DNA from: an uncultured Rhodobacterales bacterium
GTDB lineage: Bacteria; Pseudomonadota; Alphaproteobacteria; Rhodobacterales; Rhodobacteraceae
Direction of reading: 5' to 3'
NCBI GenBank assembly: GCA_964627355.1
Contig: CAZVIS010000001.1
Location: 37,086 to 101,085, forward strand
Length of the DNA: 64,000 bases
This document shows, in pieces, positions 5,354 through 21,015 of the stretch. The notes under the pieces were generated by a model, which was given only the letters and a program-made list of their open reading frames with translations, made no database searches and had not been told where the DNA came from. The position numbers and the translations under genes were made by a program. How positions within the stretch are numbered: position 1 is the first letter of the stretch; each line of letters begins with the position of its first letter.

Positions 5354-6523
5354 TCGGGCCAACCTTCAAACAGCATCAACTGGGCCGGGCGCTGGGCCTC
5401 GCCCGATGGCCGCCAGATCCACGGGCCGGAGGCCATGGGCAGCTGCGAGAGCGCGCCACGCATGTGCTGCTGCCAGAGGGTGAACTCCGTTGCCGAGCAC
5501 GCGCAAAGCGCGTGCCCGATGGGCCAGCCCATCAGCCATCCGACGAAGAGCGGGTTCAGCCGCCGCCGCGCCCGACCCTTCAGGATTCGCCGCGAGACGA
5601 CGCGCCCATGCGAGGCAATCATCGAAGCCCAGAGCGGGCGCGAGATCGGGGCGTGCGGCGAGGACCGCTGCCCATCCGGCGTAATCGCCGGGACCGGGCG
5701 GGTGAAGCCCTGTTCCGCCCGGTAGTGCAGGATGTCCATCCGGGACTTGCCATCCGCCCGAGTAATGCTGGCCTCGCTGGATCCTTTCCAGTTCTGCGCC
5801 GCTGGTGTCGGCCATTGCGCGGCCTGCGCTGGAAGAGGTGGCGCCCCACCCGAACCGTAACTCTGGCCCGGGCCGCCCTTCGCGCCATCCGTCGCCTTCG
5901 GCGTCGACCAGTTGGTGATGCCCAGCGCCAGCGCCTCGGCCTTTCGGGTGAAGTCGCTGTTCCCGGCCGGGTTGTAGCGTTCCGTGCCCGGATGCAGGCT
6001 CATCGGTGTGGGCCAGGATGAAGATGCGCAGCCGCTGGTGCGGCGCGCCAACTTCTGCCGCCGAGAACAGGCCCGCCGCAGGCGTGTAGCCCATTGCCCA
6101 AAGCTCTCGCAGGACGGCTTCAAGGCCGAGGGTGACATGACCGGGGACGTTTTCGAGGAAGACCCACTTTGGGCGGCACTCGACGATGACGCGTGCGACA
6201 TCTGGCCAGAGGTGGCGGGGGTCGTCGGCGCCACCGCGCTTTCCGGCCGCGCTGAAGGGTTGGCAGGGATATCCGGCCAAGACCATGTCGAAAGCCCCGC
6301 GAAAGGGGCGGGCATAGAAGTTTCGCAGATCATCCCAGATTGGGGCAGGTGCGAAGTATCCTGCGCGCTGGGCGGCGATGAGGACGGCGCGGGGCCAGTC
6401 CTCCCACTCGACAAAAGCGCGGGTGTGATATCCGGGCTCTGCGAGCATGAGGCCCATATCCAGCCCTCCGCCGCCTGCGCAGAGGGATAATCCGTGCCGG
6501 GGACGTGACACCATGCCATTCAC
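5350..6523 (-). CDS. Phage C5-cytosine DNA methyltransferase whose coding signal changes frame after motif VIII (frameshifted or split gene)
   Basis: The frame of ORF 5366-6586 carries motif I LCAGGGG, motif IV YPCQPFS, motif VI FLENV and motif VIII QRLRIFILAH. The frame of ORF 5350-6519 carries WSTPKATDGAKGG, WPTPAAQNWKGS and RRLNPLFVGWLMGWPIGH. The GTG at 6523 overlaps the upstream stop as GTGA. Confidence 0.7.
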
Positions 6524-7488
6524 GCCACCACGCGCAGGTTGAGGCGCTCGCGCGTCACCAGCCCGCGTGCCAGCATCAGTCCGCACATCGTGGCACTGAT
6601 CATTCCCTTGGGCAGGTATTCGTCGGAGTTGACCTTGGCGGCATAGAAGGCCGCCAACTCATCCTCGCTGGGCGGAGGCGCTGCATCTGCCTTGCGCCGC
6701 CGCTTGGCCTTTGTGCCCTTTGCGGTCGCAAGTGCCGCCTGCGCATCGCGCTGGGCCGCCCGTTCCATGAACCGGTCGAGGGCCTTGGGGCCATCGGGCG
6801 GGTTCGGGTGATCGGTACGGGTCTCGAGCGCGACCTCGATGATCCGCGCATGCGACAACCCGAGGTTGTCGATCCAGCGCCGAACATGCGTCTTGGCTGG
6901 CCAGCCCTGCCACCAGGCGGGCAGGGTGGCATTGGCGGCAAAGCCCAGCGCCGTCAGCAGTTCTGCGAAGAACCGATCAAATTCGGCCTCGCGCGCAGCT
7001 GCGTCCTCCTCCTCCTTTACAGGTTTACTTAGGGGTTCTCTTACAAGGTTAGTCTCCGGATTCCGGAGATGGCTTTGGGCAAAATCCGGAGATGGGTTTG
7101 TCAGAAATCCGGAGGTGGCCCCATGTCCGGAATCCGGAGATGGGTTGTCGTCCTGTTCTTCCTCCGTTCCGGAAAGCCCATCTCCGCTTTCCGGACATGG
7201 CTCTTGTGGAAATCCATCCTCGAATCCCAAGATGTAGCGGGTGGCTTGCCGCTTGTGGGTGCGCGGATCGTGCACGCGGACGCGGTGGATCAGGCGCAAT
7301 TCCTCGAGTTTGGCCAGATGCGCGTTCAGCGCCGAGATCGACATTTCCGAGTCGTCGGCCAGCCGTTCCTGTGTGGGGAAGCAGCCGAAGTCGGGGTTGT
7401 GCCGGTCGCAGAGAAACCAGAGCACGATCTTGGTGGCGGGTTTAAGCCCGCGCTGCTGGATCGCCCAGACGGTGGCTTTGTGGCTCAT
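6520..7488 (-). CDS. wHTH replication-initiator-like protein (lambda O-like organisation)
   Basis: The N-terminus MSHKATVWAIQQRGLKPATKIVLWFLCDRHNPDFGCFPTQERLADDSEMSISALNAHLAKLEE looks like a winged HTH. A low-complexity linker is encoded by an iteron array. A paralog lies at 61320-62273. Confidence 0.6.
   Translation of the reverse strand: MSHKATVWAIQQRGLKPATKIVLWFLCDRHNPDFGCFPTQERLADDSEMSISALNAHLAKLEELRLIHRVRVHDPRTHKRQATRYILGFEDGFPQEPCPESGDGLSGTEEEQDDNPSPDSGHGATSGFLTNPSPDFAQSHLRNPETNLVREPLSKPVKEEEDAAAREAEFDRFFAELLTALGFAANATLPAWWQGWPAKTHVRRWIDNLGLSHARIIEVALETRTDHPNPPDGPKALDRFMERAAQRDAQAALATAKGTKAKRRRKADAAPPPSEDELAAFYAAKVNSDEYLPKGMISATMCGLMLARGLVTRERLNLRVVA
7062..7143. repeat. Four direct iterons TCCGGAG(A/G)TGG inside the rep-like gene (putative phage origin)
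   Basis: Copies start at 7062, 7085, 7108 and 7133, a spacing of 23, 23 and 25 bp. Related inverted or partial copies lie at 7178-7200. A lower-GC stretch at 7021-7054 is adjacent. The same array occurs at 61847-61928. Confidence 0.7.
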
Positions 7489-7880: not shown

Positions 7881-8143
7881 GCGGCACCGCCATTCGGGAA
7901 GGCCGCCGCCGCGATGGCATGCAGCGGGCGCCGATCCAGCAAGCGCAGCACCTCCAGCGCGTCGCCACATTCACGCGCATCGTCGGTTTGGCCGACCAGG
8001 ACACGGGCGGCGAGAATGATCAGGCTGTCCGGATGTTGCGTGGTATCGGCCAGAACGCCGCGCGCTTCGGTCAGGCGGTCTTGCATCCAATCGCCGGTGG
8101 TCGAGGTCGGAATGACGGGCGGGGAGGGCAACGGCGCGTTCAT
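7877..8143 (-). CDS. 88-aa conserved phage hypothetical protein
   Basis: ORF track. A paralog lies at 62659-62925; both share DWMQDRLTEARG...ILAARV....RRPLHAIA.AAF. Confidence 0.55.
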   Translation of the reverse strand: MNAPLPSPPVIPTSTTGDWMQDRLTEARGVLADTTQHPDSLIILAARVLVGQTDDARECGDALEVLRLLDRRPLHAIAAAAFPNGGAA

Positions 8144-8406
8144 CGCCGACCCCGCGACGGTGTTTTGCGGGCCTGTTCTCTGGTCTCAAGCCAGCTGCGC
8201 ACCGTGCTGCGCCGGTAATAGACCTTGCGCCCGAGCTTGATGCTTTGCGGCCCGGTGCGCCGCATATCCCAGCGCCAAAGCGTGTCCTCGGACACCCCGA
8301 GGCTGATCGCCAGATCATGCCGACTGATCCAGTCATCCAGCAGACCGATATCGGGCGCCGGTTGATTAATATCCTGCGTATCCAACATCCGTGATTCTCT
8401 CCCCAT
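8140..8406 (-). CDS. AlpA/MerR-type HTH, excisionase-like regulator
   Basis: ISRHDLAISLGVSEDTLWRWDMRRTGPQSIKLGRKVYYRRSTVRSWLE is HTH_17-like. The start may be at 8388 instead of 8406. A paralog lies at 62922-63170. Confidence 0.65.
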   Translation of the reverse strand: MGRESRMLDTQDINQPAPDIGLLDDWISRHDLAISLGVSEDTLWRWDMRRTGPQSIKLGRKVYYRRSTVRSWLETREQARKTPSRGRR

Positions 8407-8462
8407 TTGCGCCCGACTGCGGGCGGTTGCGACTCGGGTGCAGGGGAGCAGAGGAGGGGGGA

Positions 8463-8523
8463 TGGCAGGGTGGCATAAACCGGCATATTCAAAACGCAGT
8501 TCGTGCCACCCCTTGTTTTATTG
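8463..8523. promoter_or_regulatory. Shared ~60-bp element with an exact 17-mer TGGCAGGGTGGCATAAA, upstream of the AlpA-like gene
   Basis: The 17-mer is identical to 10641-10657, with partial similarity for about 45 bp beyond it. Both copies have the same orientation and a similar distance upstream of a minus-strand gene start. Confidence 0.5.
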
Positions 8524-9313: not shown

Positions 9314-9344
9314 GTTCAGGGCGAGTTCAACGCCCGCCCTGAAC
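9314..9344. terminator. Hairpin between the convergent genes 8680-9279 and the integrase gene
   Basis: GTTCAGGGC (9314-9322) pairs with GCCCTGAAC (9336-9344) around a 13-nt loop. The second arm lies inside the 3' end of the integrase gene. Confidence 0.3.
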
Positions 9345-10565
9345 AATGCGCAGCTGCGGCTTCATCATTTCCGCGACCGCATTGACCCCGTCCCGCAGCG
9401 GCGAGTCCATCATATGTGCATAGCGTTGCGTGGTGCGCATCTGGGAATGGCCCAGCAGCTTGCCGATCATTTCCAATGAGGCGCCGCCGCTGACCAGCAG
9501 GGAGGCGAAGGTGTGGCGCAGGTCATGGATCCGCACACCCGCAATTCCAGCCTTGATCTGGATCTGACGCCAGAAGCAGCGGATTTCCTTGACCGGCTGG
9601 CCCGGCACATCGCCGGGGAACAGCCACGGACAATCCTTGTGCACAGCCGTTTGCCGCTGGCGCACGATGGCGGCAACATCCGGTGAAATCGGCAGACGGT
9701 GGATCTTGCGCTGCTTGGTGGTGGTCGCGGGCTTCGACCATGTGGCAAACTCGAGGTTGAACTGCTCAAAGCGTGCGCAGCGCACCTCGCTAAGGCGGGC
9801 ACCTGTCAACATGCACATGCGGATGATGTTGGCGGCACGCTGGTCCTCGGCCACGCCCAGCGCGCTGGCCAGACGATCAATCTCATCCATGCTCAGATAG
9901 CGTTCGCGTTCGGTCTCGATACGCCGGTGAAACCCCATCGCCGGGTTGTCGGGGCGCATCTTCCACTGGACGGCAAGGTTGAACATCTTGCGCAGAACCT
10001 CGCCGGTTCGGTTGGCGCGGATCGGCGTCGGTTTCGATCCCTGCAGTTTGCGCGCGCGATTGTTGGGTTTGGCCTTGGACGGGCGGGCGCGGCCCATGGC
10101 CACTTGGGCAAGCAATCTGTCGACATCATCCAGCGTGACCTCCTCGACCAGCTTGTGCTTCCAGACCGGCTGGACCAGTTTGCGTAGCATGGATATCTGG
10201 TCAGAGCGATTGGTCGGTGCCAGATTGGGCAGATGGGTTTCGATATAGCGGTCGATCAGATCGGGGACCCGGGGGGCGGTCATCCCGGTTTCCCGTTCAC
10301 CTAGCGGGTCGCCACCATCGTCGATGATGCGGCGCAGCGCCTTGGCCTGTTCGCGCGCAGCGGTGACTGTCCACTCTGGCCATCTGCCGATGGTGAAGCG
10401 GCGCTGGCGACCCTTGACCCGGTAATCCAGCGTGAAATTCCTGCTGCCAGATGTGAAGACGCGCAGCGAAAACCCCCGCACGTCCTCGTCGAAAACCTGG
10501 TAAATGCCCGCCCGAGGCTCGGCGGCTCTGACCAGTTTTTCGGTCAGTTTCTCTCTTTGCGCCAT
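9327..10565 (-). CDS. int: Tyrosine recombinase / phage integrase
   Basis: The C-terminus reads ARLSEVRCARF...HDLRHTFASLLVSGGASLEMIGKLLGHSQMRTTQRYAH (R, HxxR and Y catalytic pattern). The ATG at 10565 gives MAQREKLTEKLV and is preceded by GGAGGTGG. Confidence 0.9.
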   Translation of the reverse strand: MAQREKLTEKLVRAAEPRAGIYQVFDEDVRGFSLRVFTSGSRNFTLDYRVKGRQRRFTIGRWPEWTVTAAREQAKALRRIIDDGGDPLGERETGMTAPRVPDLIDRYIETHLPNLAPTNRSDQISMLRKLVQPVWKHKLVEEVTLDDVDRLLAQVAMGRARPSKAKPNNRARKLQGSKPTPIRANRTGEVLRKMFNLAVQWKMRPDNPAMGFHRRIETERERYLSMDEIDRLASALGVAEDQRAANIIRMCMLTGARLSEVRCARFEQFNLEFATWSKPATTTKQRKIHRLPISPDVAAIVRQRQTAVHKDCPWLFPGDVPGQPVKEIRCFWRQIQIKAGIAGVRIHDLRHTFASLLVSGGASLEMIGKLLGHSQMRTTQRYAHMMDSPLRDGVNAVAEMMKPQLRIVQGGR

Positions 10566-10640
10566 GATGAACCACCTCCGTGCTGACGTGACACAGGCGT
10601 GATCCGCGCTGCAGTTCAACTCAAACATCGGCCGAAGGGG

Positions 10641-10701
10641 TGGCAGGGTGGCATAAAGTGGCAGATTGAAACGGACGTCTGTGCCGGTCACTTTTTTGTT
10701 C
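10641..10701. promoter_or_regulatory. Second copy of the TGGCAGGGTGGCATAAA element, upstream of int
   Basis: See 8463-8523. It contains three TGGCA half-sites at 8-10 bp spacing. Confidence 0.5.
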
Positions 10702-11040
10702 TGCAAGGCAGGGGGCGCTGGGCCAGACTATCCCCCGCTGACCCAGAAGCGCTGCGAGCTCGCACCTATCATTCGGATGAACGGAAGCAAGACGGAACTC
10801 TCGCGGTCGCCATCGCGCGTACGTTCTGTTCTCGGTGAGTGGGGGTAACAACCAGGCAACAAGATGTGCGGGGTAGCGGGCCACCGCTACCGCCGAGTCG
10901 GGGAAACCTGACGACCGCTGACCTGCCCCGGCCGACACACAGTGCTTGATGAGAAAAAGAAATACCGGTAGGCTTGGCGCCTGATGGTGACGGCGTTGCG
11001 TACCGCTCCGCTTGCAAACTGAGAATAAGAAAAGTGAATC

Positions 11041-12099
11041 GTGACAGCAGGGCAGTGCGCAAATCAGTTAACAGCGATTGATCTATTTTGTGGCGCCGGG
11101 GGCCTGACCCTCGGTTTGCAGCAGGCTGGATTCAAGGTTCTCGCGGGCGTCGAACTCGAGGAAATTCCTTCAAATACCTACAGGACGAACCACCCCGACA
11201 CACTCTGTTTTCAGAGTGACATTCGCCAATTGGGCGCTGCACAATTACTTAAGGCTGTTGGATTGAAGCGGGGCCAGCTTGACCTTTTGGCGGGGTGCCC
11301 CCCGTGCCAAGGCTTCTCAACACTTCGCACCCGCAAGAAGCAAATGGCGGTCACGGACGAACGAAATGATCTACTTTTTGAATTTCTTCGAATGGTCGAG
11401 GCATTGTCACCACGCGCATTAATGATGGAGAATGTTCCATCGCTAGCCAGTGACAGTCGAATGACGCAGTTTGTAAAGTGCATTTCGCGCCTCGGGTACC
11501 GTGTGAATCGTAAGAACGTGCGGGTGGTGAACGCCGCAGATTACGGTGTGCCTCAGCGGCGACAAAGGATGATTCTACTGGCTTCGAAAACAGGTCAGAT
11601 AAAGGATGCGGTACGCACCGAGACGTTAACAGTACGCCAATGCTTGGAGAGCGTCGGACTCCGGCCAGTCGGCGAGGCGGACGATCCGCTGCACGACCAT
11701 ATGCCGATCCGAACTGAGCGTGTGCAGGAGATCATTCGTAGCATCCCCAAAGATGGTGGTTCTCGTAGCGCCTTGCCCGAACATCTCGTGCTGTCGTGCC
11801 ACAAGAGCAAGGCCTCAGGATTCCGCGACGTGTATGGGCGCATGGCGTGGGATCGAGTGGCACCAACGATCACTGGAGGGTGCGGCAACCCCTCTAAGGG
11901 CCGCTACCTTCACCCAGAGGAAGACCGCGCAATAAGCCTCCGCGAGGCGGCTCTATTGCAGACTTTCCCAGTCAATTACCAGTTTGATTTATCCAAGGGA
12001 CGGGACAAGGTGGCACTTATGATCGGCAACGCGCTGCCCCCGGAGTTCATCAGGCGACACGCCTTTGCGATAGCGCAATCGCTTTCATCGGAAGACTGA
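11041..12099 (+). CDS. Dcm-type C5-cytosine DNA methyltransferase
   Basis: Motif I is DLFCGAGGLTLG, motif IV is GCPPCQGFS, motif VI is MMENVP and motif VIII is QRRQRMILLA. The start is GTG. GC is about 50% against mid-60s in the flanks. Confidence 0.9.
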   Translation: MTAGQCANQLTAIDLFCGAGGLTLGLQQAGFKVLAGVELEEIPSNTYRTNHPDTLCFQSDIRQLGAAQLLKAVGLKRGQLDLLAGCPPCQGFSTLRTRKKQMAVTDERNDLLFEFLRMVEALSPRALMMENVPSLASDSRMTQFVKCISRLGYRVNRKNVRVVNAADYGVPQRRQRMILLASKTGQIKDAVRTETLTVRQCLESVGLRPVGEADDPLHDHMPIRTERVQEIIRSIPKDGGSRSALPEHLVLSCHKSKASGFRDVYGRMAWDRVAPTITGGCGNPSKGRYLHPEEDRAISLREAALLQTFPVNYQFDLSKGRDKVALMIGNALPPEFIRRHAFAIAQSLSSED

Positions 12100-12100
12100 C

Positions 12101-14068
12101 ATGATTACAAACACCCAACTTCACCTGGGGTTTCATGGTCGGATAATCGAGCATATCGGTATCCAGATGTACCAGAGCCCTACCGCTGCCCTGGCTGAAA
12201 TTGTTTCTAATGCTTGGGACGCGGACGCTACTGAAGTTGATATTTTGTTTGACTTCGACGCGGACCGAAAGACTGAGTGGACGATCACCATTCTGGACAA
12301 CGGCAATGGCATGACGAAGGAAGAATGTCAGCAGAAGTTTCTAAGCGTTGGCTTCAACAGGCGAGAGCAGGACGGTCCAAAAGCGACATCGTCCCAAAAG
12401 CTGCGCCCGTTGATGGGCCGGAAGGGGATTGGCAAGTTCGCAGGCTTTGGAATCGCGCGCTTTATCAAGATTGATACGGTGAGTAGGGAAACCGGCGAAC
12501 AGACAGTTTTTGAGTTGGATCAAGAAGTCATACGGAAAGGTGACAGCTACGTATCGACGAGTGCGCTGGATATTGCCGCGACCCACTCTGAGAGCGCGAC
12601 CAATCGCCATCATGGCACAAAGATAATACTGCGCGACCTGGACCTAGCCCGCCGAATACCAATGGAACAGTTTCGCGCCTCACTTGCCCGGCGCTTTTTG
12701 ATAAACAGCATTGCGGACGAGTTTGTCGTGAAGGTGAACGAAGTTGCAATCTCGGACAGCACAGACATTTCTACCATTGAGATGAGTTTTCCGCGCGACC
12801 TGCCGGACAATGACAGAACTGAGCGCGGGGTGACGGTCGATAGTGACGGTTGGGGCACGGAGACCGTTTCCGAGGGGAAGGTGGTACGCTGGCGAGTTCA
12901 GTTCTTTAAGGAATTGGTCAAGAACGAAGAGCTTTTCGGTGTTACAATCTTCGCTCATAAAAAGCTGGCACAGAGACCGTTCATGTTCAATCTGTCGGGC
13001 GGTTTGGCAAGTCAGGCAGGGCCAGAATACATGTCGGGACAGGTTGTGGCAGACTGGGTGGACGAGTTTGGCGACGACGTGATCTCTACCGAGCGACAGA
13101 GGTTACGGTGGGAACACGCAGAACTTGCCGAGTTGCAAGCTTGGGGACAGGCGCTGATCCGTCGGCTACTCTCGATTTGGAAAAGCAACCGCAACAGCGA
13201 AAAGCTGCGGCTGTTGGAGGCCAAGGTCGGGACGTTCGCGGAACGCTTGAAGGCGCTGGGTTCCGAAGGTGCAACTGTCCGCACTGCACTATCTAAACTG
13301 GCATCAGTCGAAAAACTCTCTTCAAGCCAGTTTCAGGATTTAGGCTCAGCTATCCTGCTCGCGTGGGAGGGGGGGCGCCTAAAAGGACTGATTCAAAAAA
13401 TCGCGCGAACGGATGACATGGACGAGGCCGAGCTCGTCGGGATACTTGCTGAAGCCAATGCGATTACAGCGCTGCATACTGCGGAAACTGTCAATGCGAA
13501 GTTACAGGCGATCAGCGGTCTGGAATCGAGGATTGCCCGAAAAGAGCTGGAGAATGCGGTCAGGGACTACATCGCGCAGAACCCATGGCTGATTTCTCCT
13601 CGTTGGGAAACCTTCGCTGTCGAAAAACGGCTTGCCACGATTTGCGACAGTGCCGCTGGCGAGTCCTTCAAGAACAGTGATGACTTCAACAAAAGAGTGG
13701 ACCTAATTCTGACCAGTGACCAGCAGCTCCTGGTCCTGGAGTTCATGCGGCCAGGGATCACGCTCGACGCAGACCATCTCAGACGTTTCGGCCAATATAT
13801 GGATATTCTGCAAGAATACATCGAGCAGAACACTGGATTGGGTTTGAAATATTTGACCGGTTACATCGTCGCTGACAAGCTCGCCCAGCGATCAGGGCAC
13901 GCGACTCAAATCAAGAACATGAACAATATTGGTCGGTACGCCATGGACTGGGAAACGCTAATCCAACAGGCCAAGCATCAGTGGAAAGAATTTTTGGTTC
14001 ATGTGAAAGAGCGTTCGCCACATGACGCCCGCCTCAACGCGGTGGGAACAGAAATTGTTGAAAGTTGA
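12101..14068 (+). CDS. GHKL (Bergerat-fold, MORC/MutL-like) ATPase with a nuclease-like C-terminal motif
   Basis: The N-box is LAEIVSNAWDADA, G1 is ILDNGNGMT and G2 is MGRKGIGKFAGFG. The C-terminus KRVDLILTSDQQLLVLEFMRPG resembles a PD-(D/E)xK (Shedu/DUF4263-like) core. The ATG lies 1 nt after the MTase stop. Confidence 0.75.
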   Translation: MITNTQLHLGFHGRIIEHIGIQMYQSPTAALAEIVSNAWDADATEVDILFDFDADRKTEWTITILDNGNGMTKEECQQKFLSVGFNRREQDGPKATSSQKLRPLMGRKGIGKFAGFGIARFIKIDTVSRETGEQTVFELDQEVIRKGDSYVSTSALDIAATHSESATNRHHGTKIILRDLDLARRIPMEQFRASLARRFLINSIADEFVVKVNEVAISDSTDISTIEMSFPRDLPDNDRTERGVTVDSDGWGTETVSEGKVVRWRVQFFKELVKNEELFGVTIFAHKKLAQRPFMFNLSGGLASQAGPEYMSGQVVADWVDEFGDDVISTERQRLRWEHAELAELQAWGQALIRRLLSIWKSNRNSEKLRLLEAKVGTFAERLKALGSEGATVRTALSKLASVEKLSSSQFQDLGSAILLAWEGGRLKGLIQKIARTDDMDEAELVGILAEANAITALHTAETVNAKLQAISGLESRIARKELENAVRDYIAQNPWLISPRWETFAVEKRLATICDSAAGESFKNSDDFNKRVDLILTSDQQLLVLEFMRPGITLDADHLRRFGQYMDILQEYIEQNTGLGLKYLTGYIVADKLAQRSGHATQIKNMNNIGRYAMDWETLIQQAKHQWKEFLVHVKERSPHDARLNAVGTEIVES

Positions 14069-14460
14069 TCGCGGTTTCTGACGTTCGTTAACGGTCCGTC
14101 GCTGCGCTACCCCACCCCGTGTTCCGTGCGCCAGTGGTCCGATGTCCCGATCAGTTCCACCGCCACGAGGCAGTTTCGGCGGACGCAAAACAGAATCTGG
14201 CATTCGCTGTGACAGGCAAGAAAGCACGGCAAGTGGCAGCTGGAATCGTAAATATTCGGCGCGTTGAAGCGAAAAAGATTGATCATAATCGTACTCGTTC
14301 GAGTCAACGCTAAGTCAACGGACAGACGCGGTTTTGGGCAGATCCAGCGCAGTTGAGTGCAGGCGAATCTTGCGGGATGCAGGGCAATAAAGCGCGTGAT
14401 AACAAAAGCCTGTCGCCTAAGCTGTTGAAATGTATAAGCCCCGGAAATCGCATAGCATTT

Positions 14461-14507
14461 GGCTCATAACCTGAAGGCCGCAGGTTCAAATCCTGCCCCC
14501 GCAACCA
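14461..14507 (+). other. 3' fragment (47 nt) of initiator tRNA-Met: anticodon loop (CAT), T-arm, acceptor 3' strand and CCA. Looks like an att-type scar.
   Basis: GGCTCATAACCTGAAGGCCGCAGGTTCAAATCCTGCCCCCGCAACCA matches the 3' part of bacterial tRNA-fMet. The upstream sequence has no CGCGGGG acceptor strand or D-arm, so the gene is incomplete. Confidence 0.8.
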
Positions 14508-14713: not shown

Positions 14714-17239
14714 TCATGAACTGAGCAGATCTGCGAGTGCTTGCATTCCACCTTGCCCTCCGCCTGTGGACAAGCGGTTCTCAAAAAACTGCCCGATGAT
14801 AGCGCGCAATGCTGATGTGTCCTCGCGAGCAATCGCTCGTTGAGCTTCCAATACGAGGCGATCATGCAGCGCCTTGTCTACGGCGGCGTACCGTTCCTGT
14901 CCCAGATGAACGACAAGACCGACAAGGAACTCTGGATCGCGGAAAAGAATCCCAAACCGGAGACCGTTCATCTCCTGAAGGGCTCGCTCAGTTGCTTCGA
15001 AGTCCTCGGTGCGCAGTGCTCGATGCGCGGTTCCGGAAAGGCGATCAAAACGATCAATTTCCACCGCCTCAGCTTTGCCACGCAGTTTGTCGAAGGCCGC
15101 CTCTATGCTTTCCAATTCCGCCGAAAGCGTGCGTCCGCGGTGCTCGGGCTTTTGGCGCAATACGGCAATGTCCTGACGAACGCGCCTCGCTTCCTCGGCC
15201 GCAGAACGATGCGTTTCCGCGTCAACGGAAGTCGACAATGCAGCGTGCTGGTCGTCCAGACGTCGGCTTAGCTTTTCCACGGCTTCTTCAGTGGACGGCC
15301 CAAGAACTTCAGCAGCCGCCTCTATAGCTTGCTCGGCCTCAAGGAGGAGGGCATTGGCAAGATCGGCACCCTCTTTTCCGTCGTAGTTCGCGTGGCCAGC
15401 TTCGGGCAGGTACAGGTCGCGCGCTTCAATAACCCGCCCCAGATCGGGTGCCTCCACCGCCAGAACCAGGAGATGGTTGTCCTCGATACGCCACCTGAGA
15501 TTAAGCATCTCACCACGCCGGATACGCTCCCCTGGATCAAGATGGCGCTGCGCATCAAGGCGGAAGTCACCCACGGAAAGCGAGAATTCCGGGTCGTCGA
15601 TCTCGTCGGTCTTCTGAAAGAGCTCGACCTTGATGTGTCCAGCCTCGCCGCCACGCAGGTCTCGTGCAACGCGGACGGGAGTGACCCCTTCTGCCGGTAG
15701 CGCCGTACCCTTCTCAACCAGAATCTCAAGGCCGTTGCGTTCCTGGCCAACTTGACCCTTCTGGACTTTGACGGCCAAAGTGTAGGTCATGGGAATGCTT
15801 CCGGACATCGCACCCAAGCGCTCGATGGTGATCTCACGACTGGCTGAGGGTAGGCGCAGCCCCGATGGATCAGTGACCTCCACAACAAACGTGTTCGCTC
15901 CCATGCGTGGAAGCCGAAGGTCAAATTTCATGCCGCCGATAAGAGGGGCCTTTCCAAACGTCACGCCATCGCGGCCAGTCACTTCAACTACGTAGCCTGG
16001 TGGAGTAGATGCCGACGTCTTGATGGTAAGCCTTGTGGTCTCGTCAGCAGCAGTGGCTGCATAGTCATATGAAACCTCGATCTCTCCGCTCGTCTTCTCG
16101 CTCCGGCGCACCGTCTTCCCCCGAGCGCCTGCGTCCGACCACTCTCTGGTTGCAGCGAATATCGAGGCTCCTGTTGCGACCGCCGTCATGGGATCGAGTC
16201 CATGCTGTACGTCTATTCCGAGTTCGCGCGGAACCGTATCCCGGATGAGGGGCATCTTCGATGGGCCACCGATCAGAACAACTCGCTCCACGTCGTCCGG
16301 ACCAAGCCCGCTGCTGCGGAGGATCTTGCGGCAGAGGTCAATGGATTCGGAGACCTTTTCTTCGACGAGTTCTTCAACATCAGCCCGCGTAAGGTCGACC
16401 GAAAGGAAGATGTCCGCGCCACTGGCGTCAGTTACGCGCGCTTCTTCGTCCCCCGCGTGTATTGTCGTAGTGTCCATCGTGGACAGGTCGATCCGCGCCT
16501 TTTCAACCGCGTGCCGAGCAATGCCAAGGAGCCTCTTGTAGCGAGGATCCTTGTGAAAATCTGCCGGAATGTCGAAGTTCTCCTCCAGCCAGGGGCGGAC
16601 ATGGCTATCCAAAATCCGTCGGTCGAAATCACGACCGCCGAGCATGTTGATCCCCTCGTGGGCGAGAACGGTGACGCTTCCCTTTATGCTCTGCACCAAT
16701 GCCAGATCGAATGTGCCGCCACCGATGTCATAGACGAGGAACACGCCATTCGGGGTCTTGCTACCCGCCACCGATGCCATGGCCGCCGCGACGGGCTCTT
16801 GAACGAGCGTTACGTGGTCCAGTCCGGCCATCCGGGCCGCCCTGATCGTCGCTTCACTCTGCATTTGATTGAAGGCAGCAGGAATGGTGACGACTGTTCC
16901 TTCGAGTTGGAATTCGCCGGCTTCCATGCGCGCCTGCCCGACCAATGTGCGCAAAATCTCGGCGCTACACTCCTCCGGCGTCCAATCGACGCCCGCCCCA
17001 TCGAAGTGAATCGGGCTGTTTGTTCCCATCAGCCTCTTGAACCCGTGTGCTGTGTTCTCTGGAGACGTGAAGATTCTGGAATAGGCGCCGTTGCCCACAA
17101 AACGGTGATTCCGCTTGTCGAGGTAGATCACGCTCGGCAGCACGTCCGTCCCGTCAGCGGTCTTGAACAGCCGCGTGGTTCCGTCAGCATGACCAACCAC
17201 CACAGAGTTCGAAGTGCCAAGATCGATTCCCAGATGCAT
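14714..17239 (-). CDS. Non-canonical Hsp70/DnaK-like ATPase (841 aa) with a long helical C-terminal extension
   Basis: Phosphate-1 is LGIDLGTSNSVV, phosphate-2 is VYDIGGGTFDLALV and the adenosine motif is VVLIGGPSKMPLIRD. About 300 extra C-terminal residues follow. The ATG shares one base with the upstream stop (TGATG). Confidence 0.9.
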   Translation of the reverse strand: MHLGIDLGTSNSVVVGHADGTTRLFKTADGTDVLPSVIYLDKRNHRFVGNGAYSRIFTSPENTAHGFKRLMGTNSPIHFDGAGVDWTPEECSAEILRTLVGQARMEAGEFQLEGTVVTIPAAFNQMQSEATIRAARMAGLDHVTLVQEPVAAAMASVAGSKTPNGVFLVYDIGGGTFDLALVQSIKGSVTVLAHEGINMLGGRDFDRRILDSHVRPWLEENFDIPADFHKDPRYKRLLGIARHAVEKARIDLSTMDTTTIHAGDEEARVTDASGADIFLSVDLTRADVEELVEEKVSESIDLCRKILRSSGLGPDDVERVVLIGGPSKMPLIRDTVPRELGIDVQHGLDPMTAVATGASIFAATREWSDAGARGKTVRRSEKTSGEIEVSYDYAATAADETTRLTIKTSASTPPGYVVEVTGRDGVTFGKAPLIGGMKFDLRLPRMGANTFVVEVTDPSGLRLPSASREITIERLGAMSGSIPMTYTLAVKVQKGQVGQERNGLEILVEKGTALPAEGVTPVRVARDLRGGEAGHIKVELFQKTDEIDDPEFSLSVGDFRLDAQRHLDPGERIRRGEMLNLRWRIEDNHLLVLAVEAPDLGRVIEARDLYLPEAGHANYDGKEGADLANALLLEAEQAIEAAAEVLGPSTEEAVEKLSRRLDDQHAALSTSVDAETHRSAAEEARRVRQDIAVLRQKPEHRGRTLSAELESIEAAFDKLRGKAEAVEIDRFDRLSGTAHRALRTEDFEATERALQEMNGLRFGILFRDPEFLVGLVVHLGQERYAAVDKALHDRLVLEAQRAIAREDTSALRAIIGQFFENRLSTGGGQGGMQALADLLSS

Positions 17240-17610
17240 CAGGCTTCTCCTTCCAAGCGGCGATCGACGGTAACAGCCCCGAGAGCAACCACGCGCTCCT
17301 GCGCGAGTATTGTGGGTTCATTGGTAAAGGCAACGATCAGCTCATCTTCCGTCGTGAACTCATCGCCGTTCAGAACACGGACCGGCAAGCCCGGGTGAAA
17401 CGGCTGGCCGTCAAACACCGCGACACGCATTCCGGCCTCGGTCAGCACCGACTCAAGTCGCGTGAGCGCGTACCGACTTTGCGCGGCCGCTCTCGCGCCG
17501 AGGTCATCACCCACGTTATCTCGAAGACGATCATAGGCGCGCAGGAGCCGCCAGTATTCCACAGCAAGTCGAGCGAACGAAGATGACAGGTTGGCGGCTG
17601 GTTCGGTCAT
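17239..17610 (-). CDS. GrpE-like protein (putative nucleotide-exchange factor), 123 aa
   Basis: The C-terminal half GMRVAVFDGQPFHPGLPVRVLNGDEFTTEDELIVAFTNEPTILAQERVVALGAVTV follows the GrpE beta-domain pattern (G..v....G..FdP..H.A.........V...GY......R.A.V.V). The ATG at 17610 forms an ATGA overlap with the upstream stop. Confidence 0.55.
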   Translation of the reverse strand: MTEPAANLSSSFARLAVEYWRLLRAYDRLRDNVGDDLGARAAAQSRYALTRLESVLTEAGMRVAVFDGQPFHPGLPVRVLNGDEFTTEDELIVAFTNEPTILAQERVVALGAVTVDRRLEGEA

Positions 17611-19475
17611 TGGTTCAAAAGTTCTCTCTGGGTTTCGATGTCCCACTCGGCATCTGCTGGCAGACGTGGATGATCGCGCTTGAAAGCACGTAGTGCCGCA
17701 ACGGACCTTGCACCGAAGCCGCCATCGACACTCGACCCGTAGTAGCCGAGTTCCTGAAGCCTGCGCTGCACAATACGTGCGTCGTCAGCATTTCGAAGGT
17801 CCAGAAGCCGGGCAGGCGTTTCGATCGTGCCAGTAGAGAATGGTGGATTCGGTGACGTTGGTTGGGGCGACGGGTCTGCAGCAGGTCGCGCCAGCTGTGG
17901 CGCCGCAGTTGACGCTGGAGCTTGGGATCCACGCCATCCTGCAAGAATTGCAGAGGCTTCACGCTGTAGCTTTGCATCTTCTCTCAAGGCTTCTGCCTGT
18001 ACAGGAGCCAGAGCGCCCTCGCGATAAGTGTAGCTTCCGCATCGCGCATTCCAGGTATCGACAAGCTCGTTGAAGCGGTTGACCTCGGTTTCACTGATTT
18101 CGAAGATCATTTCGCGCAAATGATTCAGGCGCGCATCCTGGAAAACGCAATATCGAATCTCTGGAGTTGTGAGGGGTCTGCCAACATAGGGAATCGGAGC
18201 AGTTTCGCCCTGGGAGTTTGCCTCAGTCGTTAGTGAAGGCGACGGGGGTCTTGCGACTAGCGTGGGGCTTGGCGAAGGTGTCCGTGGACTGGGAGCCTCT
18301 GATTGCGAGAACAAAAGCAACCCGCCCACAATGGCAACTACGACCCATATGGCGCCCGGAATGCCCGTCCTTCTTTCCGCTGCTGGGACGCGAGAAGTTG
18401 GTGAGGCGGGAGGCGGGGCACGTGTAACGGGCTCCTGCCGTGCAGCCTGCTGGACTTTGGCAGGTGGAGCCGGTTGAGTCGGAAGGCGCCGGACAATCTC
18501 TTCCAGAGTTTGCACATCATTGCCCAGTTTGGAGGCGATGCTGTCAAGTTCTGGAAACGTCGTGAGGAGCGCGCGTGTTAAGGCCAGCGCTTCCCGGTGT
18601 CGACCCTTTTCATTTGCCAGCCAAAGGCAAAAGTCTCGGATTTCTATGCACAGCCGTCTTGAACGTTCTTCTTCATGCCCTTCGGCCTGCTCAAGCAGCT
18701 GTACAGGCTGATTAATGTCATCCCAAGCAACCAACAGGTTCTGCAGTCGTTCGACCACTTTGGATGCGGTATGTGGAATAACTCTGCATCGGTCCATCTC
18801 GGACATGACCATTTCGCGCACTTCTTCGAGTCGCAGTTCAGAGGCCCTGTCGTATTCGCGCACGATTCGGCGGAGCATTGGCCCCAATGAATTCTGCTTT
18901 ATGGCCGTTTCGACCATTCCGGTCAGCGCAGCGGCCCCTCTAGCGTTCTGAACTTCAATGCTTCCCACAGCCTGACGAGCGTGAGCGTCCTCGAGCTTCT
19001 TCAACGCCTCGTCGAAGTGCTCCCGGTCAGGTCTCGGAATTCCAGCGCGTTGCCTTGAAGTGGCAATCGCTTGGAAAGCCTTGCCCCGGTCAAGTTCTGA
19101 CCATGCTTGGATGAGCACGGACAACGGTGCCGTGCTGCCGGGAAATCGGCCGCAAATATGCGCCGCAGCGTTGGCCTTGGCGAGCGGAGAAGCCTGTCGC
19201 GCGGCGGCCAGAGCTGAATCTTGATCCCCGCGAAGAACATCGTTGGAAAGAGAAATTGCTGCCTCGGAGGAAACATCCGCAAACCAACCCACTTCAGCCT
19301 CAAGACGAAGTCGGGGTGGGATCAGGGTCTGCTGCGCCTTTGCAGCTGTTGCCTCGTCAGAACGACCATCAACCACTGCGTCTTGACCAAGTTCGAATAT
19401 GTCGTCGGCACTGGCATCAAGGGGCGCACCGAGAACGTGAAAGGGGTTGAGCGTCAGATCAAACACCACAGCCAC
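17607..19475 (-). CDS. Membrane-spanning protein: J-domain-like N-terminus (no HPD seen), one TM helix, C-terminal peptidoglycan-binding domain
   Basis: The N-terminus reads LNPFHVLGAPLDASADDIFEL. The TM segment is RRTGIPGAIWVVVAIVGGLLLFS. The C-terminus IVQRRLQELGYYGSSVDGGFGARSVAALRAFKRDH matches the PG_binding_1 pattern. The GTG start is preceded by GGAG. Confidence 0.7.
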   Translation of the reverse strand: MAVVFDLTLNPFHVLGAPLDASADDIFELGQDAVVDGRSDEATAAKAQQTLIPPRLRLEAEVGWFADVSSEAAISLSNDVLRGDQDSALAAARQASPLAKANAAAHICGRFPGSTAPLSVLIQAWSELDRGKAFQAIATSRQRAGIPRPDREHFDEALKKLEDAHARQAVGSIEVQNARGAAALTGMVETAIKQNSLGPMLRRIVREYDRASELRLEEVREMVMSEMDRCRVIPHTASKVVERLQNLLVAWDDINQPVQLLEQAEGHEEERSRRLCIEIRDFCLWLANEKGRHREALALTRALLTTFPELDSIASKLGNDVQTLEEIVRRLPTQPAPPAKVQQAARQEPVTRAPPPASPTSRVPAAERRTGIPGAIWVVVAIVGGLLLFSQSEAPSPRTPSPSPTLVARPPSPSLTTEANSQGETAPIPYVGRPLTTPEIRYCVFQDARLNHLREMIFEISETEVNRFNELVDTWNARCGSYTYREGALAPVQAEALREDAKLQREASAILAGWRGSQAPASTAAPQLARPAADPSPQPTSPNPPFSTGTIETPARLLDLRNADDARIVQRRLQELGYYGSSVDGGFGARSVAALRAFKRDHPRLPADAEWDIETQRELLNQ

Positions 19476-19769: not shown

Positions 19770-20015
19770 TCACCTGCACGTCCGCGCCTGGTCGCGCAGG
19801 ACGGCATAGTCGCTGAGCATCCCGATAAGGACCGTGCCCTCTGGCAAGGTCGCGATCTCGGCTGCGGCTTTGCTCTGTTCGGCCGGACTGTACTCCACGA
19901 CAGGCGGGCAGGGTGCGTGGCCTTCAGAACCTGCCATCGCGCATGCGCTCAGCCAAAGCATCGCGATCAGCGGGGCGACGGCTGGCGGCGTCCAGCATCT
20001 GGCGTTGGATTTCAT
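19770..20015 (-). CDS. Lipoprotein, o-spanin-like
   Basis: It has the lipobox MLWLSAC. It starts inside the preceding gene (overlapped spanin architecture) and lies at the end of the lysis cassette. Confidence 0.55.
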   Translation of the reverse strand: MKSNARCWTPPAVAPLIAMLWLSACAMAGSEGHAPCPPVVEYSPAEQSKAAAEIATLPEGTVLIGMLSDYAVLRDQARTCR

Positions 20016-20175
20016 GGGTCGTCTCCGATGTTGAAAGGCGCTCGGCCAGCCGCCCGGCGCGTTCCCCAGTGCGGCGGAGATTCAGAACGAACAGGGTGAT
20101 GGTGAAGGCCGCCAGCACCCAGCCCATCGCTTTGCGCGCTGGAGAGCTGGCGAGGAGGGTTGGGAGCCAACCCAT
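19924..20175 (-). CDS. N-terminal TM protein, i-spanin-like
   Basis: The TM segment WVLAAFTITLFVL is followed by a charged helical segment. The ATG overlaps the endolysin stop. Confidence 0.5.
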   Translation of the reverse strand: MGWLPTLLASSPARKAMGWVLAAFTITLFVLNLRRTGERAGRLAERLSTSETTHEIQRQMLDAASRRPADRDALAERMRDGRF

Positions 20176-20852
20176 TACCGTTGGCCCCGCTTCCAGTCGT
20201 CGATCCGGGCATGGATGGCGACGGCGATGCCGATCAGCGCCACGGCGATGAACACCCAGCGCAGGGTGTCGAGATAGGGCACAAGGGGCAGGATCGTGGA
20301 TTGGGTTTCCGCCAGGATGTCTTGCGCGACTTCGACACCGGCAGCACCAACGGTTGCGATGCCAGCAGCCCCGCCGCCTTTCAGGGTGCGGCTATCGGCC
20401 AGGACCTCGCGGGCAGGGGCGGCCTCCGGCACGAAGGGCGTGGCGCGCAGGGCGAAGGGTTCGCCCCAGCTGCGCGCTGGCCCGAGGTCGATGTGCATGA
20501 AGCCCGAACGGGGATAGGTGCCGAAGCCCAGAAAGCCCACTGTCCGGGCAGCCTCGGCGAAGGCGGCGGGGTCGTGGTTCGACATGGAGATGTCGAAGGC
20601 TGTACCCAGCATGTGCTTGGAGGCCGGTGCGCCACCGACGGCGCGGTTGTGGCTGGGGCTGCGATAGCCGGAACGGATGATCATCGGCTTGCCGAGGCGG
20701 TTGCGCAGGGATTGCAGCTTGTCCATGGCCTCGGTATTGATCTTGATTGCGCCGGTGCCGCGGCAGGCGATCTCGGCCGGGGAGAAGCTGGGCCAGCGCC
20801 ATTCGCTCTCGGGCACGTCGCGGAAATGTGCATAGGTGGTGGTCGGCATCAT
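20175..20852 (-). CDS. Peptidase M15A-type endolysin with a C-terminal TM anchor
   Basis: IIRSGYRSPSHNRAVGGAPASKHMLGTAFDI...GFMHIDLG shows the H..D...H zinc-peptidase pattern. The C-terminal segment is WVFIAVALIGIAVAI. Confidence 0.75.
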   Translation of the reverse strand: MMPTTTYAHFRDVPESEWRWPSFSPAEIACRGTGAIKINTEAMDKLQSLRNRLGKPMIIRSGYRSPSHNRAVGGAPASKHMLGTAFDISMSNHDPAAFAEAARTVGFLGFGTYPRSGFMHIDLGPARSWGEPFALRATPFVPEAAPAREVLADSRTLKGGGAAGIATVGAAGVEVAQDILAETQSTILPLVPYLDTLRWVFIAVALIGIAVAIHARIDDWKRGQR

Positions 20853-20865
20853 CAGTCTCCAGAAA

Positions 20866-20890
20866 TGCAAAACCCGCCTCTGGGGCGGGT
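20866..20890 (-). terminator. Intrinsic-terminator-like hairpin immediately upstream of the endolysin gene
   Basis: The minus strand reads ACCCGCC-ccaga-GGCGGGT followed by TTTTGCATTT. Confidence 0.45.
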
Positions 20891-20919
20891 CGGGGGACGG
20901 GTTTCGGGTTGGGCGGACT

Positions 20920-21015
20920 TCAGAAGATCAGGAACATCAAGACGCCGCAGGCGAGCGCGACGAGCCAGACGCGGCCCTCGCGACGCAGGATCGCGGTGAG
21001 ATCACGGCTGCGCAT
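20920..21015 (-). CDS. 31-aa hydrophobic peptide (possible holin partner or antiholin)
   Basis: My own translation is MRSRDLTAILRREGRVWLVALACGVLMFLIF. It overlaps the holin 3' end by 14 nt. It is too short for the ORF track. Confidence 0.3.
   Translation of the reverse strand: MRSRDLTAILRREGRVWLVALACGVLMFLIF

Follow-up and report, generated by a model that had tools for sequence, protein, structure and literature searches.

Organization of the locus

The window, which is the whole stretch of 64,000 nt analyzed here, carries a gene for a Dcm-type C5-cytosine methyltransferase (MTase) followed by a co-oriented gene for a 655-aa protein in which a GHKL ATPase is fused to a nuclease-like domain. 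Both open reading frames are present exactly as the earlier note had placed them, and the single nucleotide between them suggests that the two genes are co-transcribed and translationally coupled (Table 1). The same order, MTase first and with a gap of no more than 150 nt, is found at 32 of 80 homologous loci.

Table 1. Positions of the genes, predicted domains and flanking elements in the window
Feature	Position	Strand	Description
Tyrosine recombinase (P4-type integrase) of the element carrying the module	9327..10706	-	Phage_integrase and Arm-DNA-bind_3 domains
C5-cytosine DNA methyltransferase (Dcm-type)	11041..12099	+	GTG start, 352 aa; putative modification subunit
Gene junction	12097..12103	+	Read as GAC TGA C ATG; 1-nt spacer
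GHKL-ATPase-fused restriction-type nuclease (predicted)	12101..14068	+	ATG start, 655 aa; sister clade of the BbrUII/HgiDII (paraMORC3) family
Bergerat-fold ATP-binding domain	12179..12619	+	Residues 27-173; HATPase_c_3 78.9 bits, cut-off 25
Middle (transducer / S5-like) domain	12641..13117	+	Residues ~181-339; invariant K288
Long helical linker / putative dimerization lever	13118..13537	+	Residues ~340-479; AF2 helices 340-377, 387-401, 408-423, 442-479
C-terminal PD-(D/E)xK (RecB-type) nuclease-like domain	13538..14065	+	Residues 480-655
Rewired catalytic motif block (candidate)	13694..13798	+	R532-x-D534 ... E547-F-M549-R550-P551 ... D556-x-x-H559-x-x-R562-x-x-x-Y566
47-nt 3′ fragment of tRNA-Met (anticodon loop to CCA end)	14461..14507	+	Att remnant, right end of the element

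The pair is located between a tyrosine integrase and a tRNA-Met att fragment. No tRNA was called at this 47-nt fragment by ARAGORN or Rfam; it occurs as a single copy within the 64-kb window, and a copy that is 100% identical lies at the same position in locus L002, while in L001, the closest relative, the module is adjoined by an intact tRNA-Met. L002 and L085 likewise have a syntenic integrase upstream of the module, and the element in the window additionally carries an MmeI-type restriction-modification enzyme. Taken together, the two genes have a GC content of 0.538 (MTase 0.556, ATPase gene 0.527), compared with 0.653 for the core genome (20 to 64 kb), so that the earlier description of a low-GC island stands with respect to the core, whereas its figure of about 50% overstated the contrast, the flanks themselves being at 0.606 (left) and 0.579 (right). 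Third-position GC follows the same trend, at 0.60-0.61 for the pair versus 0.76 in the integrase gene and 0.83 in the GTA gene. Together with the integrase, the att fragment and the presence of the same two-gene module in other Rhodobacterales, these values bear out the proposal of horizontal acquisition, with the pair probably being cargo of an integrative element that targets tRNA-Met in this Rhodobacterales genome and lying at the att-proximal end of that element.

Relationship to known GHKL-fused restriction enzymes

The 655-aa protein aligns with the NCBIfam model NF050001 (BbrUII/HgiDII family restriction enzyme) in one collinear stretch, residues 15-637 to profile positions 9-647 of 659, and scores 290.1 bits (E = 3.8e-86), which does not reach the cut-off of 550. 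True members score 751-794 bits, and a relative of the window protein from phage P37 scores 329 bits. Judged by these alignments, the window protein is outside the BbrUII/HgiDII (paraMORC3) equivalog family and is part of a large, derived sister clade (195 sequences, 485 species); relatives in the databases number at least 6986 and at least 1383 for the two branches. PADLOC matches the protein to REase_II models (PDLC03419, E = 1.5e-45; PDLC03485, E = 4e-27), so the locus has the makeup of a Type II restriction-modification system, an intact MTase with an adjacent co-oriented gene that matches REBASE-derived REase models. In RefSeq, members of the clade are named only 'ATP-binding protein', and thus a widespread type of restriction-modification system is under-annotated.

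The two branches are 23-25% identical and have in common their length (about 650 aa), the order of GHKL, middle, helical and C-terminal RecB-type regions, their C5-MTase partners and their occurrence in the P2 gpA-gpQ hotspot. This two-gene architecture of C5-MTase and GHKL-nuclease has been known since 2008, when paraMORC3 proteins were described, in which GHKL and S5-like modules are joined at the C-terminus to a RecB-like RE-fold domain with conserved E-D-ExK and whose genes, sporadic in distribution and laterally mobile, occur with Dcm and Vsr genes and sometimes stand alone (Iyer, Abhiman & Aravind 2008, PMC2292703). The clade resembles paraMORC3 in its architecture and in its Dcm/Vsr association, but lacks the ExK lysine. 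In the same year, R.HgiDII of Herpetosiphon, whose target is GTCGAC, was described as a GHKL protein with a C-terminus lacking an assigned fold (Orlowski & Bujnicki 2008, PMC2441816). The fusion had been thought unusual in the earlier note, a view that does not survive the comparison, as the same architecture is found in R.HgiDII, paraMORC3 and NF050001 and is already called a Type II REase by PADLOC. Phage PhiR44_1 encodes a protein labeled paraMORC3, a member of NF050001 with 24% identity; our equation of NF050001 with paraMORC3 derives from this one phage depositor's 'ParaMORC3' label and not from the alignment of Iyer et al.

The methyltransferase and its linkage to the ATPase gene

The MTase is of the Dcm type, as read earlier from the DNA, covering positions 2-319 of the 324 in Pfam PF00145 (DNA_methylase; E = 2e-55) and exceeding the TIGR00675 dcm cut-off (150 bits against 100.65), with PADLOC MTase_II matched at E = 2e-82. 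The translation contains catalytic motifs I (DLFCGAGG), IV (GCPPCQGFS), VI (MENV) and VIII (PQRRQR). With the MTase that partners a true BbrUII/HgiDII-family enzyme it shares only 34% identity, and the target site is therefore probably different. In B. breve, M.BbrUII alone had little effect on transformation efficiency, an observation that runs against a restriction-modification reading.

The earlier note had staked its proposal beforehand on homologs being linked to methyltransferases, and the linkage is there: a C5-MTase lies within 6 kb at 68 of 80 clade loci (85%), directly adjacent at 49 and in three gene orders. Distant relatives are likewise Dcm-linked, and the identities of the partners, MTase versus ATPase-nuclease, co-vary (Spearman 0.46, p 0.001). 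The remaining 12 of the 80 clade members are without a linked MTase yet intact, which is unexpected for a constitutively active REase blocked by methylation. A separate Vsr gene is present at 38 of the 80 loci, that of L001 included; Vsr is commonly found with m5C methylases. Clade members also sit between gpA and gpQ in P2-like prophages and in phage P37, an interval that has been defined in P2-like prophages as an anti-phage hotspot (PMC9122126).

The ATPase and middle domains

The complete GHKL ATP-binding module claimed for the 655-aa protein is confirmed by its motifs and by the HATPase_c_3 match (Table 1). E33-IVS-N37-AW-D40-A (ExxxNAxDA), D66-NGNGM71 and G106-RKGIGKFAGFG117 provide motifs I (ExxxNxxD), II (DxGxG) and III (a G-rich lid with Lys) of the GHKL (Bergerat-fold) superfamily, and all 195 clade sequences conserve E33, N37, D40, D66, G68, G70, G106, K108 and K112. 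Sequence matches of this domain in the PDB are to MutL, MORC2 and MORC3, those to MORC2/3 at E about 1e-3. Attached to it is an Hsp90/MORC-like middle domain: when the full-length AF2 model (pLDDT 79) was compared by Foldseek, ~430 columns aligned to the N and M domains of Hsp90/TRAP1 and to the ATPase modules of MORC2/3 (E = 5e-14 to 1e-11). The TM-score to MORC2/3 is about 0.5 and the similarity to MORC is generic and N-terminal, the best family-level match being a paraMORC3-type family rather than MORC. K288, which is invariant in the clade and likewise in the canonical relatives, is a putative gamma-phosphate sensor, and the helices modeled between residues 340 and 479 may act as a dimerization lever.

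Because analogies between these GHKL proteins and MutL-dependent repair have been drawn (Iyer et al., PMC2292703), the MutL-like N-terminus might be read as that of a methylation-associated repair factor, an ATPase-nuclease analogue of Vsr/MutL that handles the T:G mismatches arising by 5mC deamination at Dcm sites. With a Vsr gene of its own beside the pair at so many loci, such a role would be redundant, and the family is curated as restriction enzymes by NCBIfam and REBASE and resides in phage defense hotspots; we regard a repair function as very improbable.

The C-terminal domain

The earlier note had recognized a PD-(D/E)xK-type tail in which the lysine is replaced, a reading that Foldseek, hhalign and the motif census support. 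In the AF2 model of the domain alone (residues 480-655; pLDDT 81, pTM 0.74), the predicted order of elements, H512-522, E534-539, E542-548, H557-576 and E584-592, fits the alpha-beta-beta-beta-alpha-beta core of the PD-(D/E)xK fold. The best Foldseek matches are to the catalytic domain of Nt.BspD6I (probability 0.99, rmsd ~3.1 Å over ~104 columns), at an E-value of only 0.02, and none was found at E ≤ 1e-3; so weak a value for the restriction endonuclease fold speaks, taken by itself, against a restriction-modification reading. Assignment of the fold to the model draws in addition on homology to relatives that bear ExK. By profile comparison, the C-terminus is homologous to the RecB-type nuclease domain of the canonical family (hhalign 99.8%, E = 4e-30, 177 columns), positions 494-580 match PADLOC REase_II (E = 4e-9), and the ExK-bearing canonical relatives give weak matches to NucS_C, PDDEXK_4 and HSDR_N_2. 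At the level of sequence profiles, then, the C-terminus of the GHKL-restriction superfamily is shown to be a RecB-type PD-(D/E)xK domain.

A further label, that of a Shedu/DUF4263-like nuclease, was not supported. The C-terminal 332 aa gave no PF14082 (DUF4263) match and the 655-aa protein no match to PADLOC SduA models at E up to 10, nor were PF14082 or SduA matched at E up to 1 in five canonical or sub-threshold relatives (L081-L084, L093) or in clade member L094, and no Shedu structure is among the best 50 of 779 weak Foldseek PDB matches to the nuclease domain. What makes the comparison worth drawing is VcSduA (Shedu type I-D), an anti-phage protein in which a GHKL ATPase and an Hsp90/MORC-like middle domain precede a C-terminal DUF4263 PD-(D/E)xK nuclease and whose defense depends on the ATPase Glu as well as on the ExK Lys, with K557A abolishing function (PMC12137116). 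Its ATPase Glu, E27, corresponds to E33 in the window protein. GHKL-PD-(D/E)xK proteins of this type work alone, with no methylase (PMC12137116; Gu et al. preprint 10.1101/2023.08.10.552793), stand-alone paraMORC3 genes were noted by Iyer et al. (PMC2292703), and the solitary clade members described above are intact. It could be hypothesized from this that the GHKL domain senses infection and licenses non-specific, methylation-independent cutting, with the Dcm gene serving a separate function or co-traveling as cargo. Against this are, besides the missing DUF4263/SduA signal, the 1-nt spacing of the genes in the window, the high frequency of C5-MTase linkage in three gene orders, the frequent Vsr genes, and an exhaustive search with the C-terminal profile that returned only 586 representatives, of which all full-length ones have the same architecture. 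An infection-activated nuclease of the Shedu kind is thus unlikely.

An active site without its lysine

The C-terminal motif stretch quoted earlier, V533-DLILTSDQQLLVLEFMRPG552, retains Asp534 and Glu547 of the catalytic triad (Asp, Asp/Glu and Lys on strands 2 and 3), and has Met549 in place of Lys, at the position equivalent to the essential K557 of VcSduA. The replacement of the lysine, mentioned only in passing before, is strictly conserved throughout the clade and coupled to other changes. Position 549 is hydrophobic (M/V/I/L) in 195 of 195 clade sequences and K in none; D534, E547, H559 and Y566 are each at 100% and R562 at 99.5%, in sequences that are 38-88% identical overall. In contrast, among 119 canonical sequences the 549 column is K in 81% and the 562 column Q in 79%, such that the canonical D…(D/E)xK…QxxxY stands against D…ExM…DxxH..RxxxY in the clade, where DxxH is invariant. 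What is new here, as read from these alignments, is therefore a large mobile sister clade in which a normally essential catalytic lysine is always replaced.

How this site is to be understood depends on whether cleavage was lost with the lysine, which is possible given that the ExK Lys is essential in VcSduA and absent in all clade sequences. The protein might then be a nuclease-dead, MORC-like DNA clamp, loaded in an ATP-dependent manner on unmethylated DNA, which it blocks or compacts without cutting, and this would sit well with the perfectly conserved ATPase motifs and with N-terminal two-thirds that resemble the ATPase modules of MORC2/3. Conservation at 99.5-100% of the metal-binding D534 and E547 along with H559, R562 and Y566 is hard to square with a decayed site, however, and an MTase partner that is frequent and looks obligatory suggests that the protein has a toxic activity against which the host must be protected. 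There is also precedent for the basic residue moving to the second core helix, in Pa4535, where relocation of the Lys produces the motif PD-EXX-K (Steczkiewicz et al. 2012, PMC3424549). This is the arrangement that we propose for R562, although Pa4535 is of an unrelated family and its relocated residue is Lys rather than an Arg possibly aided by His. We consider a dead clamp quite unlikely for the window protein, and that the entire ExM clade, hundreds of species and P2-like phages included, silences or blocks DNA lacking the Dcm mark as a non-cutting, MORC-style ATP-driven clamp is a long shot, less likely still; were it so, the clade would represent methylation-guided, non-nucleolytic defense and would functionally bridge to MORC silencing in eukaryotes. 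That the other residues of the site are strictly conserved favors, short of proof, a site that is rewired and still active, in which R562, possibly together with H559, may have taken over the function of the Lys.

Proposed mechanism

We therefore favor, with some confidence, a Type II-like restriction-modification module that pairs the Dcm-type MTase with an ATP-gated GHKL-nuclease whose rewired site still cuts. In this proposal, C5 methylation at a specific site would mark host DNA, and the 655-aa partner would be the restriction subunit, built from the GHKL ATPase and transducer, the helical lever and the RecB-type PD-(D/E)xK domain. As in MutL, MORC and Hsp90, ATP binding would bring the GHKL domains together as a dimer, here one that clamps DNA, and the clamp would set two nuclease domains to cut DNA without the methyl mark, with ATP hydrolysis resetting it. 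Within the active site, Met stands in place of the beta-strand Lys of ExK, and on the next helix the invariant R562 stands in place of the motif IV Gln (QxxxY), while the invariant D556-x-x-H559 pair appears to have newly arisen in the clade.

Restriction enzymes with a GHKL fusion have been on record since 2008, and on the role of their ATPase the papers cited here that discuss them put forward only hypotheses. The sister clade adds to these a large, mobile and phage-borne group whose site lacks the canonical lysine, which has been proven indispensable in the closest analogue tested. If its members still cut, they would offer a tractable model of ATP-gated restriction and a natural experiment in active-site rewiring, from a strand Lys to a helix Arg/His. 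Two sequences are candidate intermediates, P0382, which has K, DH and Q at the relevant positions, and P0339, which has M, DH and R.

Identity and architecture of the gene pair

The locus belongs to a known kind, the GHKL-fused Type II restriction-modification (R-M) systems of the HgiDII/paraMORC3 type, within which it stands for a large variant clade, as yet uncharacterised, whose active site is rewired. What the earlier note observed is confirmed, and its interpretation is supported in part. The two plus-strand ORFs of the earlier note proved exact in their coordinates, and the junction reads TGA-C-ATG, leaving a spacer of 1 nt. The first gene was also correctly named a C5-methyltransferase (MTase), with matches to PF00145 (Pfam, E 2e-55), TIGR00675 (150 bits, cut-off 100.65) and PADLOC MTase_II (E 2e-82). 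In the 655-aa product of the second gene, every motif quoted in that note is present, and HATPase_c_3 matches residues 27-173 (78.9 bits vs 25). The full-length AF2 model (pLDDT 79) superposes over ~430 columns (E 5e-14 to 1e-11) on the MORC2/3 ATPase modules and on Hsp90/TRAP1 (N-terminal plus middle domains). Matches to PDB sequences comprise MutL and MORC N-termini only.

Features of the window around the methyltransferase-ATPase pair
Feature	Position	Strand	Description
MmeI-family Type IIG R-M enzyme	1123-3900	-	complete, 925 aa; all five MmeI Pfam domains
AlpA-like HTH gene	8140-8406	-	
64-nt direct repeat, two copies	8459-8522 and 10637-10700		72% identity
Tyrosine integrase	9327-10706	-	P4-type; upstream of pair
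C5-cytosine methyltransferase	11041-12099	+	352 aa, GTG start
GHKL-ATPase protein	12101-14068	+	655 aa
tRNA-Met 3' fragment	14461-14507		47 nt, anticodon loop to CCA end; 393 nt downstream of pair
Three-gene operon	14714-19475	-	stops and starts overlapping; GC 0.58
Operon gene, Hsp70/actin-fold ATPase			841 aa, long non-chaperone C-terminus
Operon gene, 622-aa protein			PG_binding_1 domain at its end
Sole GCCGGC copy	16916		inside the Hsp70-like gene
RcGTA-type cluster	20000-27779		
DUF2793	22710-23681	-	GTA cluster
GTA_TIM, Phage-tail_3, Rcc01698_C	23691-27779	-	GTA cluster

The protein is collinear with NF050001, the BbrUII/HgiDII family model (residues 15-637 vs profile positions 9-647 of 659, E 3.8e-86), and also matches the REBASE-derived REase_II models of PADLOC (E 1.5e-45 and 4e-27). 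However, its NF050001 score of 290 bits lies under the 550-bit equivalog cut-off, and it departs from the BbrUII/HgiDII family both in missing this threshold and in its catalytic-motif definition. The fusion itself, which had been regarded as unusual, has well-described precedents besides NF050001. R.HgiDII combines an N-terminal GHKL module with a C-terminal domain "unassigned to any known fold" (Orlowski & Bujnicki 2008, PMC2441816), and paraMORC3 proteins carry GHKL, S5 and a RecB-like E-D-ExK domain and are linked to Dcm and Vsr genes (Iyer et al. 2008, PMC2292703). GHKL-nuclease fusions have also been placed in Shedu type I-D (Gu et al. preprint 10.1101/2023.08.10.552793; VcSduA study PMC12137116). 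In the P2-like phage PhiR44_1, a gene labelled "ParaMORC3" by its depositor adjoins a "Dcm protein" and scores 751 bits against NF050001, so in practice the two names, paraMORC3 and BbrUII/HgiDII, cover one family.

The C-terminal domain

The nuclease-like character proposed for the tail was borne out by its relatives. Two true NF050001 members, from Haloplanus (L081, 794 bits) and Rubrobacter (L084, 767 bits), share the signature R-x-D ... (D/E)-[LIV]-K-R-P ... Q-x-x-x-Y with the sub-threshold loci L082 and L083 and with more distant subfamilies, and some of these canonical-site relatives give weak NucS_C, PDDEXK_4 or HSDR_N_2 matches. Aligned with hhalign, the C-terminal profile of the clade around the window protein matches them with 99.8% probability (E 4e-30, 177 columns). 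This homology to relatives with a canonical active site is the decisive evidence, and by it we assign the tail as a RecB-type PD-(D/E)xK domain. Residues 478-655 modelled alone (pLDDT 81, pTM 0.74) find their best PDB matches in the nickase Nt.BspD6I, specifically in its PD-(D/E)xK catalytic domain (Foldseek prob 0.99, rmsd ~3.1 Å, ~104 columns), at an E of only 0.02. Further RE-fold proteins appear here and there below these in the ranking.

The narrower assignment of the tail as Shedu/DUF4263-like was dropped. No DUF4263/SduA sequence model matched the window protein or its relatives (for the window protein, Pfam and PADLOC at E up to 10), a profile search of PDB sequences gave 0 matches, and the Foldseek top 50 held no Shedu entry.

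Searched exhaustively with the C-terminal profile (HMMER), 1.84 billion cluster representatives yielded only 586 matches at E up to 1e-3, of which 73 reach 1e-30. All the full-length ones are about 600-710 aa long and carry the domain at the C-terminus, and the domain is thus confined to one architecture. Word-indexed searches found at least 1383 relatives with a clade query and at least 6986 with a canonical one; in RefSeq, clade members are named "ATP-binding protein" only. Members occupy the gpA-gpQ defence hotspot (defined in PMC9122126), both in P2-like prophages of E. coli and in Yersinia phage P37; GHKL, MORC or Dcm cassettes go unmentioned in the main text of two papers on the P2 hotspot.

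A rewired active site

We compared 195 clade sequences, which share 38-88% identity with the window protein, with 119 canonical sequences.

Residue states in the clade (195 sequences) and in canonical relatives (119 sequences), numbered on the 655-aa protein
Residue	Clade	Canonical
E508, R532, D534, E547, P551, Y566	100% conserved	
549	M 182, V 6, I 5, L 2, never K	K 81%, R 10%
R550	93%	
D556	D 91%, N 9%	
H559	100% conserved	acidic
R562	99.5%	Q 79%

In these alignments, the change of the motif III lysine to methionine is coupled to two others: the motif IV glutamine becomes arginine, and a D-x-x-H pair is gained where the second core helix begins. A pair of proteins from the C-terminal profile search have the look of evolutionary links between the canonical site and the rewired one: P0382 (ELKRP..DH..RQLEDY) retains K and Q with the DH already present, and P0339 (ELMRP..DYDHL.IRLNRY) has a canonical-looking strand 2. 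In VcSduA, mutation of either the ExK lysine (K557A) or the ATPase glutamate (E27A) abolishes defence (PMC12137116); the clade retains the ATPase glutamate (E33, 195/195) but is without the ExK lysine. Relocation of a catalytic lysine to the second core helix has been described for Pa4535, with the motif PD-EXX-K (PMC3424549). Because the metal ligands, H559, R562 and Y566 are perfectly or near-perfectly conserved, a compensated active site is favoured, and the clade enzymes are most likely still active. The locus forms no new category, but poses a concrete, testable puzzle as to how, or whether, such enzymes cut DNA.

Linkage to methyltransferase and Vsr genes

Linkage was assessed in 80 loci, the best among 485 species genomes encoding a relative and drawn from bacteria and archaea. 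A C5-MTase lies within 6 kb in 68/80 loci (67 by tblastn and one more by Pfam), in agreement with the linkage on which the earlier note had staked its R-M interpretation. Direct adjacency (150 nt or less) was seen in 49 loci, with the MTase gene first in 32, as in the window, the nuclease gene first in 14, and the two convergent in 3; in adjacent pairs, the identity of one partner varies with that of the other (Spearman 0.46, p 0.001). Another MTase type was sought in the 13 loci without a Dcm match and rejected: the 68 flanking ORFs comprised, by Pfam, the one missed C5-MTase, whose locus we guess from its Vsr match to be L052, and otherwise unrelated genes.

Homologs of Vsr were found in 38/80 loci by tblastn (E down to 4e-33) with a Vsr sequence used as a probe only. 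That the GHKL protein might itself be a Vsr analogue, a nuclease of deamination repair, was rejected as the main explanation, since the presence of a separate Vsr in these 38 loci counts against such a role. No Vsr was detected anywhere in the window, which leaves its m5C sites without linked very-short-patch repair. In the closest relative, L001, a Gemmobacter MAG locus, a Vsr gene occupies 6432-6833 (-) between the GHKL gene and tRNA-Met, and the window counterpart, 14069-14460, is without one.

The remaining 12/80 loci (~15%) are solitary, with no C5-MTase within 6 kb and with housekeeping or unrelated neighbours (L023, L025, L027, L029, L030, L038, L040, L047, L056, L057, L060 and L075). 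Most are from Streptomyces and other actinobacteria, and Cenarchaeum is also represented; their ATPase and ExM/DxxH/RxxxY residues are all intact, and they resemble the stand-alone paraMORC3 genes of Iyer et al. (PMC2292703). On their account, a Shedu-like, methylation-independent mode is conceivable for part of the clade. L084, a true BbrUII/HgiDII member on the Rubrobacter marinus plasmid NZ_CP045122, also has no Dcm neighbour; it is flanked by a DEAD/DEAH helicase, a PD-(D/E)XK nuclease and another restriction endonuclease, a neighbourhood resembling the helicase-linked operons of Iyer et al. 2008 (PMC2292703).

For the methylase-linked pair, in which domain identities, homology, motif states, linkage and mobile context are observed, we propose a restriction mechanism with ATP gating, methyl-sensitivity and residue compensation as its inferred steps. 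The Dcm enzyme would mark a specific site, and ATP binding would dimerise the GHKL protein into a DNA clamp, whose two C-terminal nuclease domains would cut DNA without the methyl mark. In each domain, D534 and E547 would bind metal, with R562/H559 standing in for the absent lysine, and hydrolysis would reset the clamp.

Target site

The window MTase is only 34% identical to the MTase partner of an HgiDII-type enzyme. GCCGGC, the NaeI/NgoMIV site, occurs once in the 64-kb window, in a foreign-looking gene, against 57 (Markov) or 65 (zero-order) expected copies, a ~60-fold depletion; CGGCCG is present in 89 copies. Such scarcity points strongly to restriction avoidance in the host lineage. As a clue to the target of the pair it was rejected, because depletion fails to track MTase type across homolog loci: L001, with an MTase 84% identical, has 5 GCCGGC sites in 7 kb.

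Mobile context and surroundings

A low-GC island had been described here, and the contrast is real but smaller than claimed: GC is 0.538 for the pair, 0.606 and 0.579 for the immediate flanks and 0.653 for the core (20 to 64 kb). GC3 is 0.60-0.61 in the pair, 0.76 in the adjoining integrase and 0.83 in one core gene. Horizontal gain of the pair, as suggested in the earlier note, is well supported by the integrase, the tRNA-Met fragment and the same module in related loci. In L002, a Rhodobacter MAG locus, integrase, MTase and GHKL genes are followed by the identical 47 nt at the contig end; in L001, the module (76% nucleotide identity) is followed, after the Vsr gene, by an intact tRNA-Met. 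A 100%-identical protein is also encoded on further metagenome contigs, with the integrase upstream in one. An intact tRNA as attL was ruled out, as ARAGORN and Rfam found none anywhere in the window; only the 47-nt fragment is present, so no left end of the element was found in the window. Repeats D1 and D19 yielded no att candidate.

The copies of the 64-nt direct repeat sit upstream of the AlpA-like HTH gene and of the integrase start, possibly as shared regulatory sequence or as remnants of tandem elements. The mobile region also holds a second R-M system, of the MmeI family, ~7 kb away from the pair. From about 20 kb, an RcGTA-type gene-transfer-agent cluster indicates that the core genome resumes, and fits a Rhodobacterales host. 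Just right of the tRNA-Met fragment, the three-gene operon could be another defence or conflict module; its 135-aa protein gave no matches, and the N-terminus of its 622-aa protein (NPFHVLG...) is J-domain-like by eye.
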